DNA of 63,911 nt from Hyphomicrobiales bacterium (lineage in GTDB: Bacteria; Pseudomonadota; Alphaproteobacteria; Rhizobiales; HXMU1428-3), in the NCBI GenBank assembly GCA_017640685.1, contig JAEPQF010000002.1, forward strand, positions 1 to 63,911. Reading direction: 5' to 3'. Positions 3,233 through 17,396 of this stretch are shown here, in pieces (within the stretch, counting starts at the first letter, position 1; every line of letters starts with the position of its first letter). The position numbers and the translations under genes were made by a program. Below the pieces are notes generated by a model that was given only the letters and a program-made list of their open reading frames with translations, was not told the origin of the DNA and made no database searches.

Positions 3233-3940
3233 TTGGTTTTAACAATGAAGATATCTCGGGAGGTGTCAATGTTATTACGGTTTCTCAGTATAGCCACAGT
3301 GAGTGTCACGCTGCTGACATTCCAAGCCATTAACTCGACAGAAACAAAAAGCTCCCTTCCTGAAAAATCAATCCATGCTGCAGAAGAAAGCATCTTTTCT
3401 GAAAACAAAACATTCAGCGCCCTTTATAAAAAGAAAGAAGAAACAGCTGCTGAAAAATATTCAAAATTTATAAATACCAATTTTAACAACAAGCACAATG
3501 GCCAACCAATTATCTACCTGGCATCAATTGGTCAAATCCCTTTAAAATTTCCAAAAGTCGAACTAAAAGCAAGACCATCCTACCTGCCCCCCATTGACTT
3601 TATCTCCACTGAAGATGAAGCGAAAAACAATCCCGAACCAGTTTTAACCGCTAGCATCAATAGTGAAATAAAAATCGAAATCAGTGAACCACTTAAAGCG
3701 ATTAAAGCACATAAACTAAGCCTCAAGAAAAAATCAAAATACAAAAAATCAAGAAAAGCGAATTACAAAAAATACAAACGCACTAAAAAATACAAAAAGA
3801 AATACAGAAAAAAATATGCCAGCTATAAGAAATCAAAATATAAAAAATACAACCTAGGCAAATCTGTTAAACGCAAAAAGTCAAAACGTAAATATAGAGT
3901 GCGCTACAGACCAACAAACTATTTAGACGCCTTTAATTAA
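3233..3940 (+). CDS. Hypothetical protein with N-terminal hydrophobic segment and Lys/Tyr/Arg-rich low-complexity C-terminus
   Basis: 235-aa ORF; hydrophobic stretch LLRFLSIATVSVTLLTFQA; last ~75 aa dominated by K, Y, R, S. Start uncertain. Confidence 0.55.
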   Translation: MVLTMKISREVSMLLRFLSIATVSVTLLTFQAINSTETKSSLPEKSIHAAEESIFSENKTFSALYKKKEETAAEKYSKFINTNFNNKHNGQPIIYLASIGQIPLKFPKVELKARPSYLPPIDFISTEDEAKNNPEPVLTASINSEIKIEISEPLKAIKAHKLSLKKKSKYKKSRKANYKKYKRTKKYKKKYRKKYASYKKSKYKKYNLGKSVKRKKSKRKYRVRYRPTNYLDAFN

Positions 3941-5974: not shown

Positions 5975-8284
5975 GTGGGAACAGCGGTGAAACAATCAAA
6001 GAGCAAAAAAGGGGGTACTCCTCAAATTGTAAAATTTGAAACCACATCCAGTTCGCTAAAAGATCGTCTCGTTAGCAATCGCATTCATTCAGCTGTATCA
6101 GCTCTAGCCTCATCCTCTTCCCCCGTTTCAGAAACAGATGATTTTTTCCATGAATGCGTAAAAAATCTCTCAAAAGCTTTTGGAGTTAAATACGCTTTTA
6201 TTGGAGTATTTGAAGATGAAACAAAATCATCAATTCGCTCTCTTGCCGTCTCAACTGATTTAAAAATCACAGAAAACATCTCATATGACTTGAAGGGAAC
6301 ACCTTGTGAAGATTGTCTCAATCAACAACAAGTCTTAATTCAAGAGGATGTAGCTGAAAAATATCCTGAAGATGACATGTTAGCTGAGATGGAATTACAA
6401 AGTTATTTTGGTAGCTCTATCATCGACTCAAACGGCCATGAATTAGGGCTTGTTGTAATCCTAGACACAAAGCCAATGGCAAAAGACGAATGGATGTACC
6501 CTATATTCGCTCTTTTTGCAGATCGTATTTCATTAGAGTTAGAGCGCATCAACCGCCAAAAAGATTTAAGACTAGCTGCAAGCGTGTTTGAAAACAGTCG
6601 TGAAGGCATAATGTTGCTTGATACAGACTGGAAAATTCGAAAAGCAAACAAAGCTTTCTCTAATATATCAGGCTGGAATGAAGATGAAATTATCGGCCTT
6701 CCCGTCACAAAACTCGCAACCAAAGATCAAACAGATTTTTCAATTTGTGAAATTTCAAAACGTTTGGCGGAACAAGATCACTGGGAAAATGAAATATGGT
6801 CTCATCAAAAAAACGGTGGTATTTACCCAGAAAAACGCACAATCTCAGCTGTAAGAGATCCTCAAACAAAAGAGGTCATTCATTATATAAGCATGACAGT
6901 TGACATTTCAGAGCAAAAATATGCCGAACAGCGGATCAATCGTCTTGCAAAATATGATCAAATCACAGAGTTGCCAAACAGAAATTATTTCAATGAAAAA
7001 TTAAATGAGAACATATCTATTGCAAGAAAACAAAACACTGATCTTGCTCTCATGACATTAGATTTAGACGGTTTCAAACTCATTAATGATATGCGCGGTC
7101 ATCAAACCGGAGATAGATTGTTGAAATTAATGGGCGAACGTTTACAATATTTGCCAACAAATGAAATTTTCTGTGCCCGTATAGGCGGTGATGAGTTCAC
7201 ACTTCTTTTTAACTTTAATAAAAAACAAGATAATCTCGAAGCAATATTAAACGATCGTGCAGAAGAAATCATCGATTTAGTTAGTCACCCTTATATGCTG
7301 GATGGAGAAGAAACCGTAATCACAGCCAGCATTGGCATAGCCATTTTTTCCGATGAAAGTAATGATGCCCAAAGCCTCATTCAAAATTCTGATCAAGCTC
7401 TTTATGTAGCAAAGAAAAAGGGAAAAAATTGTTTTGAATATTACAAACCTGAATATAGCAGTAATGTAGAAAATCAATTCGCCCTAACAAATTTGCTACG
7501 CAAAGCTTTGGCAAAAAATCAATTCGAAATTCACTATCAATCAAAAAACAAAGCCAAATCCCATGAAATTGTTGGCTATGAAGCTCTCATCAGATGGAAG
7601 CTGGATGACGGTGTCTTAGTTAGCCCTGGCCAATTCATTCCCGTTGCAGAAGACACCGGCATGATCACTGAAATTGGAAAATGGGTTATCAAAGAAGTCT
7701 TTAATCAAACAAAAATCTGGAACCATAAAGGTTTCCATTTCGGGCGCATATCCATCAACATCTCAGGGCGACAACTCTCAGATGATAATTTTGTTCAGTG
7801 GATAAAAGAGCTCATTCAGGAAACAAAAACAAATCCTCAATATTATGAACTTGAAATTACAGAGAGCTGGTTAATCGAAGATCCTGACAAATCAGCAAAT
7901 GTTCTAACTCAATTACATGATCTCGGCTTCCACCTATCAATTGATGATTTCGGTGTGGCCCACTCATCGCTCAACTATTTAAAATGCTTCCCTGTTGATA
8001 CAATTAAAATTGACAGATCATTTACAAGAGACATCACAACAAGTGAAGAAAGCATGGCCATTATTTCAGCCATCATTGCTATCGGAAACAATCTAAACCT
8101 CAACATCTTAGCTGAAGGCGTTGAAACCAAAGAACAATTAGAAAAACTTGAAGCAGCGGGCTGCAATGAAATTCAAGGCTTTTATTTCTCAAAACCTCAG
8201 CCAGTAAACATTCTAGAAATGGCACAACGAGAACTGCAAAACAGTTCTGAAGAATTCCAAGCCCCTCATTCAATCAGCGCTTAA
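5975..8284 (+). CDS. GAF-PAS-GGDEF-EAL diguanylate cyclase/phosphodiesterase
   Basis: GAF (YDLKGTPC, YPEDDML, LGLVVILD), PAS (ASVFENSREGIM..NKAF..ISG), ARIGGDEF, YEALIRW, ELEITES, DDFG, AEGVET, QGFYFSKP. Confidence 0.93.
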   Translation: MGTAVKQSKSKKGGTPQIVKFETTSSSLKDRLVSNRIHSAVSALASSSSPVSETDDFFHECVKNLSKAFGVKYAFIGVFEDETKSSIRSLAVSTDLKITENISYDLKGTPCEDCLNQQQVLIQEDVAEKYPEDDMLAEMELQSYFGSSIIDSNGHELGLVVILDTKPMAKDEWMYPIFALFADRISLELERINRQKDLRLAASVFENSREGIMLLDTDWKIRKANKAFSNISGWNEDEIIGLPVTKLATKDQTDFSICEISKRLAEQDHWENEIWSHQKNGGIYPEKRTISAVRDPQTKEVIHYISMTVDISEQKYAEQRINRLAKYDQITELPNRNYFNEKLNENISIARKQNTDLALMTLDLDGFKLINDMRGHQTGDRLLKLMGERLQYLPTNEIFCARIGGDEFTLLFNFNKKQDNLEAILNDRAEEIIDLVSHPYMLDGEETVITASIGIAIFSDESNDAQSLIQNSDQALYVAKKKGKNCFEYYKPEYSSNVENQFALTNLLRKALAKNQFEIHYQSKNKAKSHEIVGYEALIRWKLDDGVLVSPGQFIPVAEDTGMITEIGKWVIKEVFNQTKIWNHKGFHFGRISINISGRQLSDDNFVQWIKELIQETKTNPQYYELEITESWLIEDPDKSANVLTQLHDLGFHLSIDDFGVAHSSLNYLKCFPVDTIKIDRSFTRDITTSEESMAIISAIIAIGNNLNLNILAEGVETKEQLEKLEAAGCNEIQGFYFSKPQPVNILEMAQRELQNSSEEFQAPHSISA

Positions 8285-8288
8285 AAAA

Positions 8289-8876
8289 TCAAAGCCTGCA
8301 AAAAATAATTTTCGCCTTAGAGCCAATAAGCTCTGAAAGGCGTTCCACAAAGTCAGGTGAAATTTCAAGCCAATTCCAGAATTTCAAAATTAAATTCCCC
8401 AAAACCATATCATTCTGAAAATCCAAATAAACGATGGGTGCTGAAAACTGACAATGCTCACAAGTCCACTCCCCAGCGCCAGTTTTTGCCAACCACTCTT
8501 CAATAGCTGAAGATACACCACCAGAATAAGAATGCCCCTTTCCACAAGAAGGACAATTAACCCCGAGCCAGTCCCCTGAAGCATTCCCAACAGTTTGATG
8601 ATCAGTTAAAACTTGCAAACCATTGACAGCAAGGCCAGTTGAAAAAGAAGCATAAGAACCATTAATACAATCCAATTGCTCCTCCTCATAAATAGTAGCT
8701 TTTATAAATTGTTTACCAGGACCATACCCCTGCTCCTTTTCAGCAAGCACACAATAAGACAATTCAGAGTTTATAATCTCATGATCAATTAAATGATTTA
8801 TTATGATCGCTCTAGCTCTTGAAACATCTTTTAAAGCAAGATGAGGAAAAGCAATCGCACAATAAGTATCCGACAT
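8289..8876 (-). CDS. Hypothetical protein with putative zinc ribbon
   Basis: 195 aa; CPSC...CEHC pair; FWNW motif; RBS GGAGAG upstream. Confidence 0.65.
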   Translation of the reverse strand: MSDTYCAIAFPHLALKDVSRARAIIINHLIDHEIINSELSYCVLAEKEQGYGPGKQFIKATIYEEEQLDCINGSYASFSTGLAVNGLQVLTDHQTVGNASGDWLGVNCPSCGKGHSYSGGVSSAIEEWLAKTGAGEWTCEHCQFSAPIVYLDFQNDMVLGNLILKFWNWLEISPDFVERLSELIGSKAKIIFCRL

Positions 8877-9096: not shown

Positions 9097-9957
9097 ATGA
9101 ATTTTGACACCACAAAACTCGATGCGACTGGCAAAGTTATTTTAGATCATATTTATGATCAAGAAACTCCGCTCCATTTTTATAATGCCTTATCTCAATT
9201 AGATTACAGCATTCCAGATCAAGCAAATCCAATTTTTGAAAAAATAATTTCATTTATCAAAAAACATAGATCTACCAAAACAGTCAAACTCATCGACCTT
9301 GGTTGTTCATATGGAGTAAACGGCGCTCTATTAAAATCAACAAAATCACTCGCTAATCTACTCTGTCGCTACCAATCTGCTGAGCTTAAAAACTTGTCTT
9401 CAAAAGAATTAACTCAACAAGATAAAACTTGGCTCAATCCAAATAAAAAAAATATCAATATAGTCGGAGCAGACGTCTCAGAACCTGCCTTAAACTATGC
9501 CTTACAAACCAACCTAATCAATAATAAACTTTGTGGAAATTTCGAAGAAAGATCACTCTCTAAAGAAGAAGAAAAAATCATCCAAGATGTGGACTTGATC
9601 ATCTCAACAGGATGCATTGGCTATGTCAGCCATCAAACCATAGGTGAATTATTAAATTCTCTCACACCCAAAGCTCCCATCATGGCGCACTTTGTTCTCC
9701 GAACCATTTGTTATAAAAATATCGAACAAGAGCTAGATCAAGTTGGCTACAAAACCTACAAATCAAAAGCCCCTTTTAAACAGCGGAGCTTTGCGTCAAA
9801 GGAAGAAAAAGAAAGCACGTTAGGACGCTTAAGAGAAATGTCGATAAATCCAAAAAACCTGGAAGATAAAGGCAGTTATTATGCCCACCTTTATCTTTCA
9901 ATACCTTCAGAGATAGAATTTTCATCTCTCCCTGAAGATATTTTGTCATATTTTTAA
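9097..9957 (+). CDS. Class I SAM-dependent methyltransferase-like protein
   Basis: LIDLGCSYGVNG (motif I), VGADVSEPAL (motif II), DLIISTGCIGYV. Confidence 0.8.
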   Translation: MNFDTTKLDATGKVILDHIYDQETPLHFYNALSQLDYSIPDQANPIFEKIISFIKKHRSTKTVKLIDLGCSYGVNGALLKSTKSLANLLCRYQSAELKNLSSKELTQQDKTWLNPNKKNINIVGADVSEPALNYALQTNLINNKLCGNFEERSLSKEEEKIIQDVDLIISTGCIGYVSHQTIGELLNSLTPKAPIMAHFVLRTICYKNIEQELDQVGYKTYKSKAPFKQRSFASKEEKESTLGRLREMSINPKNLEDKGSYYAHLYLSIPSEIEFSSLPEDILSYF

Positions 9958-9974
9958 AAGCTAAAAATCAAGCC

Positions 9975-11855
9975 TTAAGAAATTTCACTTTCCAACAAAT
10001 TTGAAAGTTCTCTTAAAGCCAAATCATAATGCTTGATAAAACTTTCCAGAGCTTCTTCCTCACCTTGTGCGGTACTCAAATAGCAGTTGATCACATCCGA
10101 GCGAACCAAATAACCAACACCAATGCACCCAGGCCCAGTTGAACCAAAACCAAAATAAAGGATCGTTGGAGATGGCGCAGAACTGGTACTCAAACTATCC
10201 TGGCGCATCTTAATCCATCCAGGACTTTCAAAAAGCTTCAATGCATTTTCACAATCATCTTTAGAAAGTTTACCACCAAGAATTTTCCCCATAAACCCAC
10301 CAGCAAACAATTCAGGATTGCGGTTATAAATATTTTGCAGCTCCCACAAATGTTGCTCAGGCGCGTGCCCCTGCTGGCACTGTTTCGCACGCTCAACATG
10401 TTTTGTGGCGGCCTCTCTAAAGGCTTTGATTTTTTCATCTTGAGAAGCATTCGAGCTTTCAATAGTTTCAACAAACTTAAAGACCTCAGGCGTCACAGTG
10501 CGCATCGCCTCCGTCCGTCCTCTACAATATTGCCGCGTTGCAATAGATTCATACGTCGCTCCAATAAACCCTTTGGTGCGATAGTGCGCCAACTGCATCG
10601 CACATTGTGCAAACGCATCGGGAGACATCCCTAAAGATTTAATATGTTTCCCCCCCCACTCAGGAAGGTCATAAGTGCGCGTAATCGTCGTTTGTCTTAA
10701 ATTTTTAAAATCTTCCGCAGCTTTAGAGACAATCCCGTCAAGCTCTGACGTCAATTTAAATTCTAGCTTTTGAAATGATGGCGTTCCTTGTGTCTCCGCT
10801 CCCATTTGAGCATCTAAACCATCAAGGTCACAGTCTAATATCGTATCAACAAAATTAAGAATGGTCGTGCCATCTAATCCGCAATGCTCAATATTAATCC
10901 CGGCCATGCCATTTTCAAAAACAATCAATTGCAATGCTGTGTCATACCAACGATTGCCTGAGCCGCCATGCAAAAGATTATCACAAGCCTCAAGCTCACT
11001 TGCTGGAGTAATATCATCGAGGTTAATCGAAAACAGAGCTGTTTCAATCAAATCAAGATTATCTTTATTTTGAAAAGATGCAGATTTTAAAACTTCACGC
11101 GCTTTAGCCCATTCAGCGCGGCGCATCGTGGTCAAATGACCAACAGATTTCTCATCGCGCTCCCCAGCGCTTGCCTCTAAAATAGCAACCATTCCAGCTT
11201 TAATATCAGCATAACTATGAGGCGTCCCATTTTCCGCCACCACATCAAGCACATAAATTTTAGCTCTAGAGAAAACAAGAATATGCCGTGCCGTCGATGG
11301 CCCTGGTTGTGCGTCACTGTAAAAACTACGCAGCGTATCTTGAGGGTCTCCAGGTATACGTGTTGCAGAAAATAAATACTTCACCTGATCCATAGATAAA
11401 GGCGTGTCTTTTAATTTCGCAACCGGTATTTCTTCTTTATCTAATAGGAGCTTGTAATTCAAAGCAGATGCTGCAATTTTCGCAGCTCTCTCAGCCTGAT
11501 TTAACTCTTCATGACGAAACAGGAAAAAGAAGTTCGCATTCAAGGCAATCGGATCTCTGCGGCCTAAATAACGCGATGGCCAAAAAACATCCAACCAACT
11601 TTTCGTATCCTTATGCGCATCAAACTCTTGTAATGCACCATGAAGTTTTTCACCTAAACCGCCATGATTGGTAAATGCCTCAAGCGCTTTTTTTGTTTCA
11701 TTTAATTCGGCTTCACTTAAGAGCGGGCTACACCATTCAATAAATTTTTCTTTTGTAACACTAAGCTCAGGTAACGGAACTTTTGGTAAAGTTTCTTCAT
11801 ATACAAAAGTGCCCTCTTGGCGCTCACCTGCTGTGTTAACTGTTGAATTACTCAT
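9975..11855 (-). CDS. Choline/carnitine O-acyltransferase family protein
   Basis: LPKVPLPEL, NRWYD..LQLIVFENG..G.N.EHCGLDG (catalytic His), SPDAFAQ..QLA, TYESIATR...GRTE, LSTS, GVGY. Confidence 0.92.
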   Translation of the reverse strand: MSNSTVNTAGERQEGTFVYEETLPKVPLPELSVTKEKFIEWCSPLLSEAELNETKKALEAFTNHGGLGEKLHGALQEFDAHKDTKSWLDVFWPSRYLGRRDPIALNANFFFLFRHEELNQAERAAKIAASALNYKLLLDKEEIPVAKLKDTPLSMDQVKYLFSATRIPGDPQDTLRSFYSDAQPGPSTARHILVFSRAKIYVLDVVAENGTPHSYADIKAGMVAILEASAGERDEKSVGHLTTMRRAEWAKAREVLKSASFQNKDNLDLIETALFSINLDDITPASELEACDNLLHGGSGNRWYDTALQLIVFENGMAGINIEHCGLDGTTILNFVDTILDCDLDGLDAQMGAETQGTPSFQKLEFKLTSELDGIVSKAAEDFKNLRQTTITRTYDLPEWGGKHIKSLGMSPDAFAQCAMQLAHYRTKGFIGATYESIATRQYCRGRTEAMRTVTPEVFKFVETIESSNASQDEKIKAFREAATKHVERAKQCQQGHAPEQHLWELQNIYNRNPELFAGGFMGKILGGKLSKDDCENALKLFESPGWIKMRQDSLSTSSAPSPTILYFGFGSTGPGCIGVGYLVRSDVINCYLSTAQGEEEALESFIKHYDLALRELSNLLESEIS

Positions 11856-11945
11856 TCATCTCCCCTATTGATAAATTAAGTTACACATATAAGATTGTTA
11901 TAATCACAGATTAGTTTGACTGTTTTTACCTTAAATGAGGCAAGT

Positions 11946-12821
11946 ATGAAAGAAAACGATCTTTTATTCCTAGAACAATTTACAAACAGTTCTACTTACC
12001 CCCTACTAAATCAAGACAGCCAAAACTATAAAACCCTCATTAAAAATCTTCAAAGTGATCTGAATAAAAAAGGGTGCGCTGTTTTAAAAGGCTTTATTAA
12101 ACCAAAATGGCACGCCCAAATTGAAAATGAAGGCGAACTGGTCGCCCCATTAGCTTATTACAAACAAGAAACAGTCAACGCCTACAACGTGCCTTTAAAT
12201 TCTGATTTGCCAGAAGACCATCCTGCAAAAATTACAATGCAGCGAGAAAATGCATTTGTAGCAAAGGATCTTATTCCTGAAACAGACATCATCCACAGGC
12301 TTTACAATAACGAGCTTTTTTCACGTTTTTTGGCAAACTGTTTTAATTACGAAAAACTCTATCAACTAGCAGACCCACTCGCCGGCCTATGTGTCAATGT
12401 CCTCAATCCTGGATGTTCTCATCCATGGCACTATGACATAAATGAATTCACGGTAAGTCTTCTCACAAAAAAACCAGAAGCAGGTGGGAATTTCAGATAT
12501 AGCCCCGGTATCCGCACCCCTGGAAATGAAAATTTAAGCGAAGTGAAAAACATTCTCTTAAATGGCGACAATCCACACAACCAAGTCACTGATTTATCTC
12601 TTGAAGTGGGTGACCTTCAACTTTTTAAAGGCAGATATTCTCTTCACCAAGTCAGCCCCGTGAAAGGTGAGGAACAACGCCACACTGCCATTTTCGCCTA
12701 CACATTAGAACCAGGCGTCATAGGAGGCGTTGAGCGAACCAAACAACTCTTTGGTCGTGCTCTTGAAGCTCACGAAATAGCTGAAAGAGAAAAAGTACGT
12801 GCTGATGAATTGTTAGATTAA
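11946..12821 (+). CDS. Fe(II)/2-oxoglutarate dioxygenase, BesD/HalD-like fold (HxD hydroxylase type)
   Basis: HPWHYD...VSLL...EAGG.F...GDLQLFKGRYSLH.V.P.....R; start ATG 11946 (GAGG RBS) preferred over 11916. Confidence 0.78.
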   Translation: MKENDLLFLEQFTNSSTYPLLNQDSQNYKTLIKNLQSDLNKKGCAVLKGFIKPKWHAQIENEGELVAPLAYYKQETVNAYNVPLNSDLPEDHPAKITMQRENAFVAKDLIPETDIIHRLYNNELFSRFLANCFNYEKLYQLADPLAGLCVNVLNPGCSHPWHYDINEFTVSLLTKKPEAGGNFRYSPGIRTPGNENLSEVKNILLNGDNPHNQVTDLSLEVGDLQLFKGRYSLHQVSPVKGEEQRHTAIFAYTLEPGVIGGVERTKQLFGRALEAHEIAEREKVRADELLD

Positions 12822-13062: not shown

Positions 13063-13533
13063 ATGAAGTCAATGCCAGTTACCTTAAATATCAACGGAGA
13101 AGATAAAAAGGTAGATGTCGCTGAAGACACCCCTCTTCTCTGGGTCATTCGTGATGAACTCAACTTAACAGGAACAAAATTTGGATGCGGCGTCGCCTCA
13201 TGCGGTGCATGCACTGTGCACATTAATGGAAAGCCTGTTCGTTCATGCCAAACCAATATTCAAGATGTTGAGAAATCCAAGATCACAACAATTGAAGGAC
13301 TTTCGGGTAAAACTTCAAAAGCCGTTCAAGACGCCTGGAGAGAATTAAATGTTGTTCAATGCGGATATTGTCAATCAGGACAAATTATGTCGGCGGTCGG
13401 CTTATTAAGCAAAAACCCCAAACCTACTGATCAAGAGATAGACACAGCCATGCAAGGCAATGCCTGCCGGTGTGCAACCTACCAACGTATCAGAGCAGCC
13501 ATTCACCTAGCTGCAACCAAATTGGAGGCCTAA
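13063..13533 (+). CDS. IorA/CoxS-like 2x[2Fe-2S] small subunit of a molybdoenzyme
   Basis: [34 protein letters not shown]. Confidence 0.93.
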   Translation: MKSMPVTLNINGEDKKVDVAEDTPLLWVIRDELNLTGTKFGCGVASCGACTVHINGKPVRSCQTNIQDVEKSKITTIEGLSGKTSKAVQDAWRELNVVQCGYCQSGQIMSAVGLLSKNPKPTDQEIDTAMQGNACRCATYQRIRAAIHLAATKLEA

Positions 13534-13535
13534 TC

Positions 13536-15737
13536 ATGACAATAGAAACTACCAGAAGAAATCTTCTCAAAGGCGTTGCAGCAACTGGCACAGCACTTTT
13601 CATTGGCTACAACACAAACGGCATTCTAAACCATACCATCGCTAATGCAGCTGAAAATTTAGATGTAACAAGCTTTAATCCATTTGTAAAAATAGCCTCA
13701 GATGGCACCGTAACCGTCATCATAAAACATTTCGAAATGGGGCAAGGCACAACAACAGGCCTCACCACACTTGTCGCTGAAGAATTAGATGCTAATTGGG
13801 AAAACATAAAAATTGAGTTTGCTCCATCTGATAATGAAAAATACAAAAACCTCGCCTTTGGCGCACAAGGTACTGGCGGCTCAACTGCAATCGCCAACTC
13901 TTTTATTCAATATAGAACAGCGGGCGCTGCCGTTCGCACTCTCCTCATAGAAGCAGCTTCCAAAAAATGGAGCATTTCTTCAAAAGAAATTTCCATTGAG
14001 AACGGTTTAATCAAAGCAGGCAATAAATCCGCTCATTTCGGAGAAGTGATTAAAGAAGCTGCAGCTTTACCTCTTCCTGAAAAACCCAACTTAAAAACAC
14101 CTGATCAGTTTAAACTCATCGGCAAAGCAAACATGCCTCGCAAAGATAATGTCGATAAAACTGATGGCACGGCTATGTTTGCTATGGATGTAAAAGTTCC
14201 AAATATGGTCTATGCGGTCATTTTAAGAAGCCCCCGCTTTGGCGGAACACTCGTTAGTTTCCAAACAGATGAAGCAAAAAGGGTCAAAGGTTTCATTGAT
14301 GCAAAACCAATGCCTTCAAAAGATGGCATTGCTGTTTATGCCAGCTCAACATGGGCAGCCATTTCTGCAAAACGAGTGATTGAAGCCAAGTGGGATTACT
14401 CAAAAGCTGAAAACAGATCAACCAAACAAATAGCTGACGCTCATTTAGAGGTTCTGAAAAAAACACCTAATTTCCAAACACGCAAAGGCGGAGATTTTGA
14501 AAAAACAAAACAAGCTATAAGTACATCAGCTAAAAAAGTTGAAGCTGAATTCACACTTCCCTATTTAGCCCATGCTCCAATGGAGCCTTTAAATTGCGTT
14601 ATTGAACCTCATTCAGACGGTGGTATAACTCTACATGATGGTTGTCAATTCCCGGGGATCGTTCATCCAACCTTAGCAAAAATCATCGGCCTGAAACCAG
14701 AGCAAGTCAAAATTAAAACTTACTATGCTGGCGGCTCCTTCGGCAGAAGAGCAACCGCAAAAAGTGATTATGCAGTAGAAGCAGCCTTTGCCTTTAAACT
14801 CTTCGGTGGGAAAAAAGCAGTGAAACTGGTCTGGACCAGAGAAGATGATTTAGCAGGTGGGTATTACCGCCCAATGGCAGCCCACCGGGTTGAAATCGGC
14901 CTTTCAGATAAAGGCGAGATTTCAGCCTGGAACCACCACATCGTCACTCAATCAATCATCAAAGGCACCCCTTTTGAAGGGGCATTGGTGAAAGATGGAG
15001 TTGACCACACCTCTGTTGAAGGCGTAGCAGATGCCGAATATGAAATTCCTGGTTTTTCAGTTGGGCTAACCGACTGGACATCAAAAATACCTGTCCTTTG
15101 GTGGCGTTCTGTTGGCCATTCCCATTCAGCTTATGTCAAAGAAGTCTCTATGGATTTAGCCGCAAAAGCTGCCGGCAAAGACCCTGTTCAATTTCGCTTA
15201 AATTACCTAAAGTCAGATAACAAAGACCAAAAAAGATTGGCCGGTGTTATAAAATTAGCAGCCAAAAAAGCCGATTGGGAAAAACCTCTTCCGAAAGGCT
15301 GGGCCCGCGGCATTGCGGCTCATAAATCTTTCAGCACATATGTCGCTGAAGTGGTTGAGATCTCTTCAACTGATGGAAATATTAAAATCGAACGGGTTGT
15401 TTGCGCAGTTGATTGTGGCCTCGCTGTAAACCCAGATGTCATAAAAGCACAAATGGAAGGTGGCATTGGTTTTGGTCTTGGTGCAATCATGCGCAATCAA
15501 ATCACCTTAGCTGAAGGCGAAGTAGAGCAAGCCAATTTCCCAGATTATGAACCATTGAGAATAAATGATATTGGTAAAATCGAAGTTCATATAACGCCAT
15601 CAGTTGAAGCACCAACTGGTGTTGGTGAACCAGGTGTTCCTCCAGCTGGCCCAGCGCTAGCAAATGCAATCATGGCTCTCAAAGGCACACCTCTTTTAAC
15701 CTTGCCTTTGAATGAAAACGGTGTTGATTTTGCTTAA
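13536..15737 (+). CDS. IorB-like xanthine dehydrogenase-family molybdopterin-binding subunit (Tat signal)
   Basis: TRRNLLKG twin-Arg, EMGQG, TGGST, HAPMEP, GGSFGRR, WWRSVG, GVGEPG; ATG 13536 follows GGAGG. Confidence 0.92.
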   Translation: MTIETTRRNLLKGVAATGTALFIGYNTNGILNHTIANAAENLDVTSFNPFVKIASDGTVTVIIKHFEMGQGTTTGLTTLVAEELDANWENIKIEFAPSDNEKYKNLAFGAQGTGGSTAIANSFIQYRTAGAAVRTLLIEAASKKWSISSKEISIENGLIKAGNKSAHFGEVIKEAAALPLPEKPNLKTPDQFKLIGKANMPRKDNVDKTDGTAMFAMDVKVPNMVYAVILRSPRFGGTLVSFQTDEAKRVKGFIDAKPMPSKDGIAVYASSTWAAISAKRVIEAKWDYSKAENRSTKQIADAHLEVLKKTPNFQTRKGGDFEKTKQAISTSAKKVEAEFTLPYLAHAPMEPLNCVIEPHSDGGITLHDGCQFPGIVHPTLAKIIGLKPEQVKIKTYYAGGSFGRRATAKSDYAVEAAFAFKLFGGKKAVKLVWTREDDLAGGYYRPMAAHRVEIGLSDKGEISAWNHHIVTQSIIKGTPFEGALVKDGVDHTSVEGVADAEYEIPGFSVGLTDWTSKIPVLWWRSVGHSHSAYVKEVSMDLAAKAAGKDPVQFRLNYLKSDNKDQKRLAGVIKLAAKKADWEKPLPKGWARGIAAHKSFSTYVAEVVEISSTDGNIKIERVVCAVDCGLAVNPDVIKAQMEGGIGFGLGAIMRNQITLAEGEVEQANFPDYEPLRINDIGKIEVHITPSVEAPTGVGEPGVPPAGPALANAIMALKGTPLLTLPLNENGVDFA

Positions 15738-15804
15738 AGAACAACAAATACAACTCGAAACACAAAAAAGTCTCTCCCCAGAAACACTGGGGAGAGTGCA
15801 AAAC

Positions 15805-16767
15805 ATGAGCAAATACACATTTGTCGAAAATGTCATTCCACATCTTTTAAATTGGAAACAACAAGGACTAAAAACCACTCTAGTCACTCTCGTTGATCGT
15901 CAAGGGTCATCTCCCCGCCCAATTGGCGCGCAAATGGCCATTAACGAAAATGGAGACGCCGTCGGCCACATCGCAACTGATTGTTTACATGATGCTCTCA
16001 TCCTTGAAGCCCAATCGGTAATGAGTTCAAAACAAAACAAACTCATTCGTTTCGGCAAAGGCTCCCCTTATATAGATCTAAAACTACCCTGCGGCAGTGG
16101 GATCGATTTATATTTTGATCAAGCCCTTTCAAAAGAACACTTAGAAAAAATGCAAACGCTCCTCAGTGATAGAAAAGCATTCACTCTTTCTATGAACATG
16201 TCTGAAGGCAGGTCCGAGATCCAGGAAATAAAAAAAGGAAGCAAGAACGAACGCTCCGCTTCAAATAAGATGATCATGCAGCGAAATTATTTCCCCGAGT
16301 TACAATTACTCATTTTAGGAAATGGGCCAACGGTTATCAATATGGCAACACTCGCCAGAGATGTGAAAATTAAAGTTCAAATCTGTGCATCAGAAACAGA
16401 CCTCCAATCACTAGCACGTTCAAAAGGCTTTGAGACTGTGAGTGACACTGAGCTTAAAAACATAGCCGCAAGTTTTGTTGATGATTTCACTGCAGTTGTT
16501 TTTCTATTTCATGACCATGAAAAAGAACTCCCTCACTATCAACCCATCGTAGAAAAATCACCTTTTTATATTGGAGCTATGGGAAGCCACACAACTCATG
16601 AACAAAGGTTAGAAACTTTAAAATCTCTTGGTTTAAAAAACGAAGCTTTAAAAAAAATCAAAGGCCCAATTGGCATCATCCCCGTTGCTAAAAACCCAGA
16701 CCTATTAGCTTTGTCAGTTATTTCTGAAATAATGAATGAAGCACAAAACAAAGACTTCATATGCTAG
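15805..16767 (+). CDS. xdhC: XdhC/CoxI family molybdenum cofactor chaperone
   Basis: GSSPRPIGAQM, LPCGSG, HDHEKE, FYIGAMGS..TH, IKGPIG; ATG 15805 after GGAGAG. Confidence 0.87.
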   Translation: MSKYTFVENVIPHLLNWKQQGLKTTLVTLVDRQGSSPRPIGAQMAINENGDAVGHIATDCLHDALILEAQSVMSSKQNKLIRFGKGSPYIDLKLPCGSGIDLYFDQALSKEHLEKMQTLLSDRKAFTLSMNMSEGRSEIQEIKKGSKNERSASNKMIMQRNYFPELQLLILGNGPTVINMATLARDVKIKVQICASETDLQSLARSKGFETVSDTELKNIAASFVDDFTAVVFLFHDHEKELPHYQPIVEKSPFYIGAMGSHTTHEQRLETLKSLGLKNEALKKIKGPIGIIPVAKNPDLLALSVISEIMNEAQNKDFIC

Positions 16768-17396
16768 ATGATAGACAAAAATTTACTGCCATTCTGCTCG
16801 CGGCTGGCCAATCATCTCGATTTGAAGATGGAGCAAAGCTCACCCATCTTATAAATGGCAAACCACTCATCGCCTGGACTTTAGCCCCCTTAATAGAAAG
16901 CAAGTTTGAGCAGATCATCATTGTAACAGGAGGGCATGCGAAAGCGATCAACTCAATACTCTCGCCTTTTGAAACTCAGCATAAAAACATAAGAACAATC
17001 CATAATGAAACTTATAACGATGGTATGAGCACTTCTATTGCGAGTGGCATGTCTCTGATCAAATCAAATATCGAAGGTGTTTTTATCTGTTTAGCAGATA
17101 TGCCGATGATCAAAGTAGAAATATTCACGAAACTCTCAAACGCATACGAAGAAGAACGAGACAACCAATCAAACAAAACCATTTTCCGCCCCGCTTATGA
17201 AGGTCAACCAGGCCACCCTGTTCTATTCAGCAAAAAACATTTTTCTAATCTCTCCTCTCTTAATGGAGATAAAGGCGCAAAAGAACTCATCCAACAAAAC
17301 AAAGATGAATTAAAACTTATCTCCGTCAATTCATCAGATATACTGATAGACATCGATAAAAAAGAAGACCTCTATAAATTACAGAGTAAAAAATAA
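16761..17396 (+). CDS. mocA: Molybdenum cofactor cytidylyltransferase (MocA-like)
   Basis: LAAGQSSRF, GMSTSI, LADMP, GHPVLF, GDKGAK, DID; adjacent to xdhC and MCD-type enzyme. Confidence 0.85.
   Translation: MLDDRQKFTAILLAAGQSSRFEDGAKLTHLINGKPLIAWTLAPLIESKFEQIIIVTGGHAKAINSILSPFETQHKNIRTIHNETYNDGMSTSIASGMSLIKSNIEGVFICLADMPMIKVEIFTKLSNAYEEERDNQSNKTIFRPAYEGQPGHPVLFSKKHFSNLSSLNGDKGAKELIQQNKDELKLISVNSSDILIDIDKKEDLYKLQSKK

Follow-up and report, generated by a model that had tools for sequence, protein, structure and literature searches.

Why would an alphaproteobacterium carry a choline/carnitine acyltransferase, a member of a family whose bacterial representatives are scattered, between a methyltransferase and a BesD-like dioxygenase? 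The question is raised by three adjacent genes, hereafter MT (methyltransferase), AT (acyltransferase) and OX (dioxygenase), in 63,911 nucleotides of DNA from a Hyphomicrobiales bacterium (contig JAEPQF010000002.1 of assembly GCA_017640685.1); this whole stretch is referred to as the window. The answer reached here is that the cassette is a real, conserved and uncharacterised three-enzyme pathway, and the three proteins very probably act together in it. As to its chemistry, we tentatively favour, at a little short of an even chance, the synthesis of an ester in which the hydroxyl of a methyl-onium acid carries a short acyl group (probably acetyl), a compound that would be acetylcarnitine-like and probably not carnitine-based. 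No published description of the cassette, or of a function for this AT clade, was found in the literature searched, which left most subscription journals and supplements outside it.

The linkage of the three genes was examined in GTDB genomes (counts are for the 80 best of 591 confirmed AT relatives, which are kin), in metagenomes (the 80 best of 166 loci) and in congeners; the three sets overlap and are related by descent, and their counts are not independent. The GTDB loci span seven named orders of Pseudomonadota and Actinomycetota, the carriers being marine alphaproteobacteria and many soil actinomycetes. OX adjoins AT in 80/80 of these loci, and all three genes are present in 66/80. A co-directional ox-mt-at run is seen in 62/80, two of them with MT and AT as one open reading frame (ORF), and the layout of the window in 4/80. 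Metagenome loci contain all three genes in 46 cases out of 80, OX and AT in 10, MT and AT in 10 (all near contig ends) and AT only in 14 (11 near contig ends); most of the incomplete loci are thus cut by contig ends, and further gene orders occur in this set. Eight of the nine AT matches longer than 700 aa are fusions of MT and AT. AT was present in 8 of 13 congeners, each time with OX and MT; in four of the five AT-less congeners, which were examined, OX was found in none and a stand-alone MT in one. The acyltransferase family PF00755 occurs in 0/300 other genomes of the class and in 3/351 Actinomycetota genomes, OX-family genes in 40/300 and 14/351, respectively, and MT-family genes in 16/351 Actinomycetota genomes. 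Since PF00755 was in none of the 300 genomes, yet OX flanks AT in every one of the 80 loci, their adjacency is far above chance. The first-pass annotation, made from the sequence of the window alone, had named co-occurrence or fusion of the three families across genomes as a check of its proposal, and this check came out in its favour: the trio is syntenic over two phyla, and MT-AT fusions exist.

The genes flanking the cassette vary from locus to locus. Clustering of 1,029 neighbouring ORFs revealed no fourth conserved cassette gene beyond lineage synteny, with the proviso that the ORF filter applied to GC-rich sequence may discard genuine genes, several known OX ORFs having been lost in this way; in the largest cluster, of 41 loci, the representative appears protein-kinase-like. 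Cassette OXs form one clade (17/17 rows, SH-aLRT 100), and cassette MTs fall on one side of a branch in 22/23 rows (support 94; one split copy was left out for length). The exception, at locus L162, is an MT of the stand-alone clade that adjoins OX-AT, which suggests re-recruitment into the cassette. In a FastTree phylogeny of ATs (68 of 158 rows, long-branch outgroups), alphaproteobacterial and actinomycete enzymes lie on opposite sides of a branch. A recent transfer of AT from actinomycetes into the alphaproteobacterial lineage is unsupported, each group being one side of that branch.

The family calls made in the first-pass annotation were upheld for all three proteins: AT and OX score over the cut-offs of PF00755 and PF23169, and MT is placed by its class I fold. 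AT matches PF00755 over its full length in a Pfam profile search (527 bits, the cut-off being 22.3; positions 1-569 of a 574-position model) and, in a PDB sequence search, matches CrAT, CrOT, ChAT and CPT2 at E values from 1e-66 to 1e-58. The 155 cassette sequences over which AT conservation was counted show no substitution at H324, D328, S556-T557-S558 (STS), W92, Y96, Y435, T448, E449 or F570, and 153 of them retain S437. The counterpart of H324 in CrAT, His343, is described as the catalytic general base in PMC11852590. AT shares with CrAT, CrOT, CPT2 and ChAT (PDB 1NM8, 1NDB, 1XL7, 2DEB, 1Q6X) the full-length PF00755 domain and the catalytic His, Asp and STS, and keeps equivalents of K423, D430, E453, Y452, S454 and T465 of CrAT-type enzymes. 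It differs from the latter in its bacterial origin, in the residues at the positions of Arg518 (Gln), K419 (Gly) and Met564 (Phe), and in its genetic setting, with a dioxygenase gene alongside and a methyltransferase that is either co-encoded or fused to it.

These substitutions bear on the substrate. Y435, S437 and T448 are the counterparts of Tyr452, Ser454 and Thr465, which we take to form the carboxylate site of carnitine acyltransferases. In ChAT, Val presumably replaces Thr465 and the carboxylate clamp is absent; AT, with its invariant Thr448, does not have this choline acetyltransferase feature, the ChAT row itself not being displayed in the alignment. AT thus has the Tyr/Ser/Thr site of a carnitine acyltransferase proper but not its Arg518, a residue assumed to lie near the carnitine carboxylate: Q501 at this position is Gln in 155/155 sequences, in contrast to the Arg of the 1NM8, CPT2 and CrOT alignments, which is also kept in two non-cassette bacterial ATs (L011 and L279). 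Judged by these aligned residues, the AT site is carnitine-like and altered in one fixed way, and the replacement of Arg518 makes carnitine doubtful as its substrate. F568, at the position of CrAT Met564, is Phe in 145/155 sequences, which, on our assumption about the role of that Met, suggests a short acyl group.

One cassette-derived AT has lost both partners. In genome G037, which contains neither OX nor MT, a rapidly evolving AT from within the cassette clade (L010:1441-3360 / L309:6921-8840) keeps the catalytic His and carries Y435G, S437N, T448V, E449Q and S556N; its neighbours are EamA, rhodanese and hexapeptide acetyltransferase genes. Its substrate has apparently changed, and the loss of the Tyr/Ser/Thr/STS residues together with both partners ties the pocket to the cassette substrate.

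OX scores 45.3 bits against PF23169 HalD (cut-off 26). Its predicted model (pLDDT 93.5) has its best structural matches in the BesD family (Foldseek E 5e-15, TM 0.62-0.70, 14-18% identity), and the top 16 ranks shown are all BesD-family chains; a profile comparison of OX with AT gave no similarity. Conservation was counted over 131 OX sequences. The iron motif H162-x-D164, the second His (H234) and R245, the 2-oxoglutarate Arg, are present in all of them, and a C-terminal tail R-x-D-x-L-[LM]-D is conserved. The aligned iron motifs are HWG in HalB and HalD and HWD in the lysine hydroxylase Hydrox. Because HxD...H is found in 131/131 sequences, OX is by its motif the hydroxylase-type enzyme that had been proposed initially; a BesD-type halogenase was rejected, as HxD stands in place of the HxG/A that leaves the chloride site.

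OX resembles the BesD, HalA, HalB and HalD halogenases and Hydrox (6NIE, 7U6H, 7U6J, 7JSD) in fold, HxW-H motif, second His and 2-oxoglutarate Arg. A candidate for their carboxylate Arg is R100, which is Arg or Lys in 131/131 sequences and, placed by sequence offset rather than superposition, falls on the substrate hairpin of the model, within one position of HalB Arg83 in a low-identity alignment. HalB Arg83 is a substrate carboxylate ligand on the hairpin (PMC10041140). By analogy of position, R100 may likewise bind a carboxylate. At the positions of the acidic residues of Hydrox (alignment at ~15% identity), OX has L145 (125/131) and T/I165 (123/131) and never an acidic residue; two conserved acidic residues, D143 and E167, are close by. 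We take the BesD counterparts, Glu120 and Asp140, to hold the alpha- and epsilon-amines of lysine. Retention of R/K100 and replacement of the acidic amine ligands, within the limits of this alignment and of these assumed roles, suggest that the OX substrate is a carboxylic acid lacking free primary amines, and lysine, which the first-pass annotation had considered for the BesD-like enzyme, is disfavoured. Besides the 14-18% identity, HxD for HxG and the replaced lysine-site residues, OX differs from the BesD-family enzymes in its longer conserved acidic C-terminal tail and its gene context. At E up to 1e-10, the wider OX family comprises 1,243 representatives, and HxD is present in all 29 sister sequences aligned; two alphaproteobacterial genomes (G132 and G329) contain 7 and 6 OX-family matches.

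MT is the least familiar of the three enzymes. It gave only sub-threshold methyltransferase matches in Pfam, no match to NCBIfam profiles and nothing significant among PDB sequences; the Atlas returned unnamed clusters and a sub-0.9 lead to PF12147. The predicted model (pLDDT 94) has the class I fold of transferases dependent on S-adenosylmethionine (SAM), and structure comparison (VIA) gave a top Z of 12.3 (rmsd 3.7, 172 aligned) with no close solved relative. D67, G69, S71, Y72 and G73 of the atypical family motif I, D-x-G/C-C-S-Y-G, and the acidic D126 are invariant in the 84 sequences aligned; a stretch S170-T-G-C-I-G-Y176 is also conserved.

What the relatives outside the cassette do may be gauged from their neighbours. 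A DddP-like M24 gene lies directly 3' of OX in 10/34 AT-free sister loci of both phyla (L202:5924-8228, L203:4916-7017, L204, L206, L296, L298, L300, L301, L302 and L303) and within ~5 kb in two more; a divergent LysR gene often accompanies the pair in Alphaproteobacteria and Actinomycetota. Among the nearest relatives of cassette OX, it is directly downstream in three of four, the fourth ending at a contig edge. No DddP-like gene was found in 160 cassette loci or in this genome. The OX/DddP-like unit is possibly an undescribed catabolic pathway. Its reading as a conversion of dimethylsulfoniopropionate (DMSP) to 2-hydroxy-DMSP and on to pyruvate is weakened, nine of the ten DddP-like proteins lacking the active-site Asp. 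Other sister OXs (97 of 204 called neighbouring ORFs were scanned, then 30) have betaine-catabolic surroundings: betA and dmdA, which both score over cut-off, were seen near them, as were an MttB gene and genes resembling those for dimethylglycine dehydrogenase and BBOX. Some stand-alone MTs, in neighbourhoods of which 83 and 42 chosen ORFs were scanned, are found near genes for LysR with a GbcA-like Rieske oxygenase, a sarcosine-oxidase-like protein, AttM lactonase with an iron alcohol dehydrogenase, a 4-hydroxybutyrate-dehydrogenase-like protein, BKACE and a betaine ABC transporter.

From these observations we infer the substrate, methyl acceptor, direction and, provisionally, order of steps as follows. 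With SAM as donor, MT would convert a small omega-amino acid (or thio acid) into a betaine-type cation by methylation at its amine (or thioether); OX, with Fe, O2 and 2-oxoglutarate, would hydroxylate a carbon of the acid, most simply giving a choline-like X+-C-C-OH; and His324 of AT would move the acyl group from a short acyl-CoA onto the new hydroxyl. At loci without MT, the methylated precursor might come from a paralogue or by uptake; seven of ten genomes with such a locus do carry an MT-family gene elsewhere, which in one genome follows a second OX fragment. The route of methylation, hydroxylation and O-acylation outlined in the first-pass annotation stands as far as the conserved trio and the enzyme families go, and carnitine itself is in doubt on account of the Gln at Arg518 in 155/155 sequences. 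In eukaryotes, carnitine biosynthesis (TMLH, BBOX) followed by CrAT likewise proceeds from a methylated onium acid through Fe/2-oxoglutarate hydroxylation to O-acetylation. The logic of the cassette is alike; it differs in that the hydroxylase has the BesD fold instead of the TauD/BBOX fold, the methyltransferase appears to be dedicated to a small molecule and no aldolase or dehydrogenase accompanies it. The bacterial acetylcholine synthases BbChAT and PpChAT (2026), which are hexapeptide-repeat enzymes using imported choline (PMC13391359), also O-acetylate a quaternary amine alcohol in bacteria. They are unrelated to PF00755 and come without a methylase or hydroxylase.

Several observations weigh against an onium ester made by three enzymes. 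MT is missing from 14/80 GTDB loci, 3/10 genomes with an MT-less locus have no MT homologue at all, and AT stands alone in three metagenome loci with adequate flanks. The fold neighbours of MT are tied among N-, O- and C-methyltransferases, with no preference for an N- or S-acceptor. Stand-alone MTs (L261-L263, L265-L267, L270, L275; motif D-x-C-C-S-Y-G) most commonly have an AsnB-like amidotransferase and a carbon-nitrogen hydrolase as neighbours, and the betaine-related neighbours listed above probably stem from one lineage. The onium argument is one of guilt by association with sister clades, 22 of whose 34 OX loci have no DddP-like gene. The six DddP-like neighbours that were scanned reach 285-430 bits, the family cut-off being 600, and the active-site Asp, whose role in DddP is given in PMC5395565, is kept in 1/10 of the adjacent proteins, most metal ligands being retained. 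Thus, compared with the DMSP lyase DddP (PDB 4S01, 4RZY), the partners of the nearest AT-free OX relatives are homologues below the family cut-off, mostly without that Asp; moreover, the native substrate and role of DddP are disputed (10.1101/168930).

Other substrates have to be weighed. The three enzymes might act on a non-onium compound (for instance an amino acid, free or N-acylated, the head group of a lipid or a secondary-metabolite precursor), with MT being an O- or C-methyltransferase or transferring another part of SAM. This would agree with the use of lysine or ornithine by known BesD-fold enzymes (PMC10041140), with the equal standing of O-, C- and N-transferases among the fold neighbours of MT, its atypical motif I and its sub-0.9 lead to PF12147, and with the amidotransferase and amidase genes often beside stand-alone MTs. 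We consider it unlikely: the aromatic and Ser/Thr choline/carnitine pocket of AT is invariant and was lost in the partnerless AT of L010, OX has Leu and Thr/Ile at the Glu and Asp positions of the lysine hydroxylase, and no nonribosomal peptide synthetase, polyketide synthase or lipid gene was among the conserved cassette neighbours.

The pathway might also run in the opposite direction, as catabolism or salvage, with AT shifting to CoA the acyl group from an acyl-betaine or choline ester taken from the environment, OX demethylating or cleaving the freed alcohol oxidatively and MT being accessory. AT-type reactions are reversible (PMC11852590), OX-AT is the invariant core from which MT is dispensable in 14/80 loci, and sister OXs lie in LysR-regulated, catabolic-looking operons. 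Yet the clustering of neighbouring ORFs revealed no transporter, regulator, dehydrogenase or downstream catabolic gene conserved beside the cassette, a SAM-consuming enzyme fused to AT suits synthesis better, and an OX working on the alcohol freed by AT would need no methylase, which makes this direction improbable. The first-pass annotation had mentioned a salvage route as well. A version feeding known carnitine catabolism is disfavoured, because searches of this genome (G000, 96.7% complete) revealed no BKACE, BCCT or DddP and no carnitine dehydrogenase scoring over cut-off, and neither a transporter nor a dehydrogenase is conserved with the cassette.

Acetylcarnitine itself would be made if MT trimethylated gamma-aminobutyrate to gamma-butyrobetaine, OX replaced BBOX and AT acetylated the resulting carnitine. 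This minimal three-step chemistry is in line with the Tyr/Ser/Thr residues and the Thr-Glu pair that AT shares with carnitine enzymes, with the 4-hydroxybutyrate-dehydrogenase-like, AttM lactonase and BKACE genes near some stand-alone MTs, and with the failure to find BBOX in this genome, in a weak search that matched no control genome either. It is nevertheless distinctly improbable, given the Gln at Arg518 in all 155 cassette ATs, where the non-cassette L011 and L279 have Arg, and the failure to find carnitine catabolism or a BCCT transporter in G000. Finally, that the three genes are hitch-hiking neighbours with unrelated jobs, as loci related by descent and chosen as the closest relatives of AT might suggest, is highly improbable, since the linkage persists in both phyla, in several orders of the genes and arrangements of their strands, in fused form and amid varying flanking genes, and the four AT-less congeners are without OX as well.

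Returning to synthesis of an onium ester, we put forward a broader proposal that is rather unlikely to hold in full: three enzymes would suffice in actinomycetes and some marine alphaproteobacteria for the de novo synthesis of a betaine or sulfonium ester resembling acetylcarnitine, a BesD-fold hydroxylase replacing BBOX, and cassette OX would form one branch of a larger, uncharacterised family of oxygenases acting on onium acids, the sister branch of which would work with DddP-like enzymes in breakdown. If true, this would give a bacterial clade of the choline/carnitine acyltransferase family its first assigned role, add a new onium metabolite (an osmolyte, acyl-CoA buffer or signal) to common soil actinomycetes, provide a function for proteins annotated "HalD/BesD family halogenase" despite a hydroxylase motif, and offer a handle on the real role of DddP-like paralogues.

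The coordinates of the cassette are collected in Table 1. The initial description of AT and OX as divergent across less than 100 bp, with MT converging within 17 bp, was borne out. An ORF finder puts the OX start at TTG 11916. This start was rejected, and ATG 11946 is most likely the true one, judging from the database protein P0124, which begins there, a GAGG just 5' of this ATG in 9/9 aligned loci and one-base indels between 11916 and 11946 in several relatives; it is from this start that the AT/OX gap is measured. Promoter-like matches in the gap were at the level of shuffled sequences, and so was a terminator scan. In comparisons with four congener loci, dN/dS was 0.05-0.15 in 11 of 12 cases, one being saturated. 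Two contigs, from four runs, cover the whole stretch, and none of the indels listed for them shifts the reading frame within the genes.

Table 1. Genes, intergenic regions and key residues of the cassette (window positions)
Feature	Position	Strand	Remarks
MT	9097-9957	+	286 aa; class I (Rossmann) SAM-dependent transferase of uncharacterised family; intact ORF
MT motif I, D67-L-G-C-S-Y-G73	9295-9317	+	D67xG69xSYG73 invariant in 84 aligned
MT/AT convergent gap	9958-9974		17 bp separating both stop codons
AT	9975-11855	-	626 aa; choline/carnitine O-acyltransferase (PF00755); intact ORF
AT Q501	codon 10353-10355	-	at CrAT Arg518 position
AT catalytic H324	codon 10884-10886	-	equivalent to CrAT H343; HxxxD motif with D328
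AT/OX divergent intergenic region	11856-11945		90 bp; conserved GAGG ahead of OX ATG
OX	11946-12821	+	291 aa (most likely start); BesD/HalD-fold Fe(II)/2-oxoglutarate dioxygenase; intact ORF
OX iron motif H162-x-D164	12429-12437	+	131/131
OX second His H234	12645-12647	+	131/131

Several other genes of the window were inspected. Downstream of OX, 2Fe-2S and molybdopterin oxidoreductase subunits (13063-17396, by Pfam) are followed by genes that we take to be XdhC-like and MocA-like; since L013 and L092 have this module at that position and L012 and L015 do not, it is a variable insertion that has no relation to the cassette. On the other side, divergent from MT, the minus strand at 8289-8876 encodes a 195-aa protein with two CxxC pairs and no Pfam or NCBIfam match over cut-off, which was found beside the cassette in L012 only, among 12 loci compared. 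A 235-aa protein without a Pfam match (3233-3940, plus strand) combines a hydrophobic stretch in its N-terminal region with a long C-terminal tail rich in Lys, Tyr and Arg; its N-terminal part is conserved in congeners. A GAF-PAS-GGDEF-EAL protein (5975-8284, plus strand) is near the cassette in close congeners only and lies outside the conserved unit.

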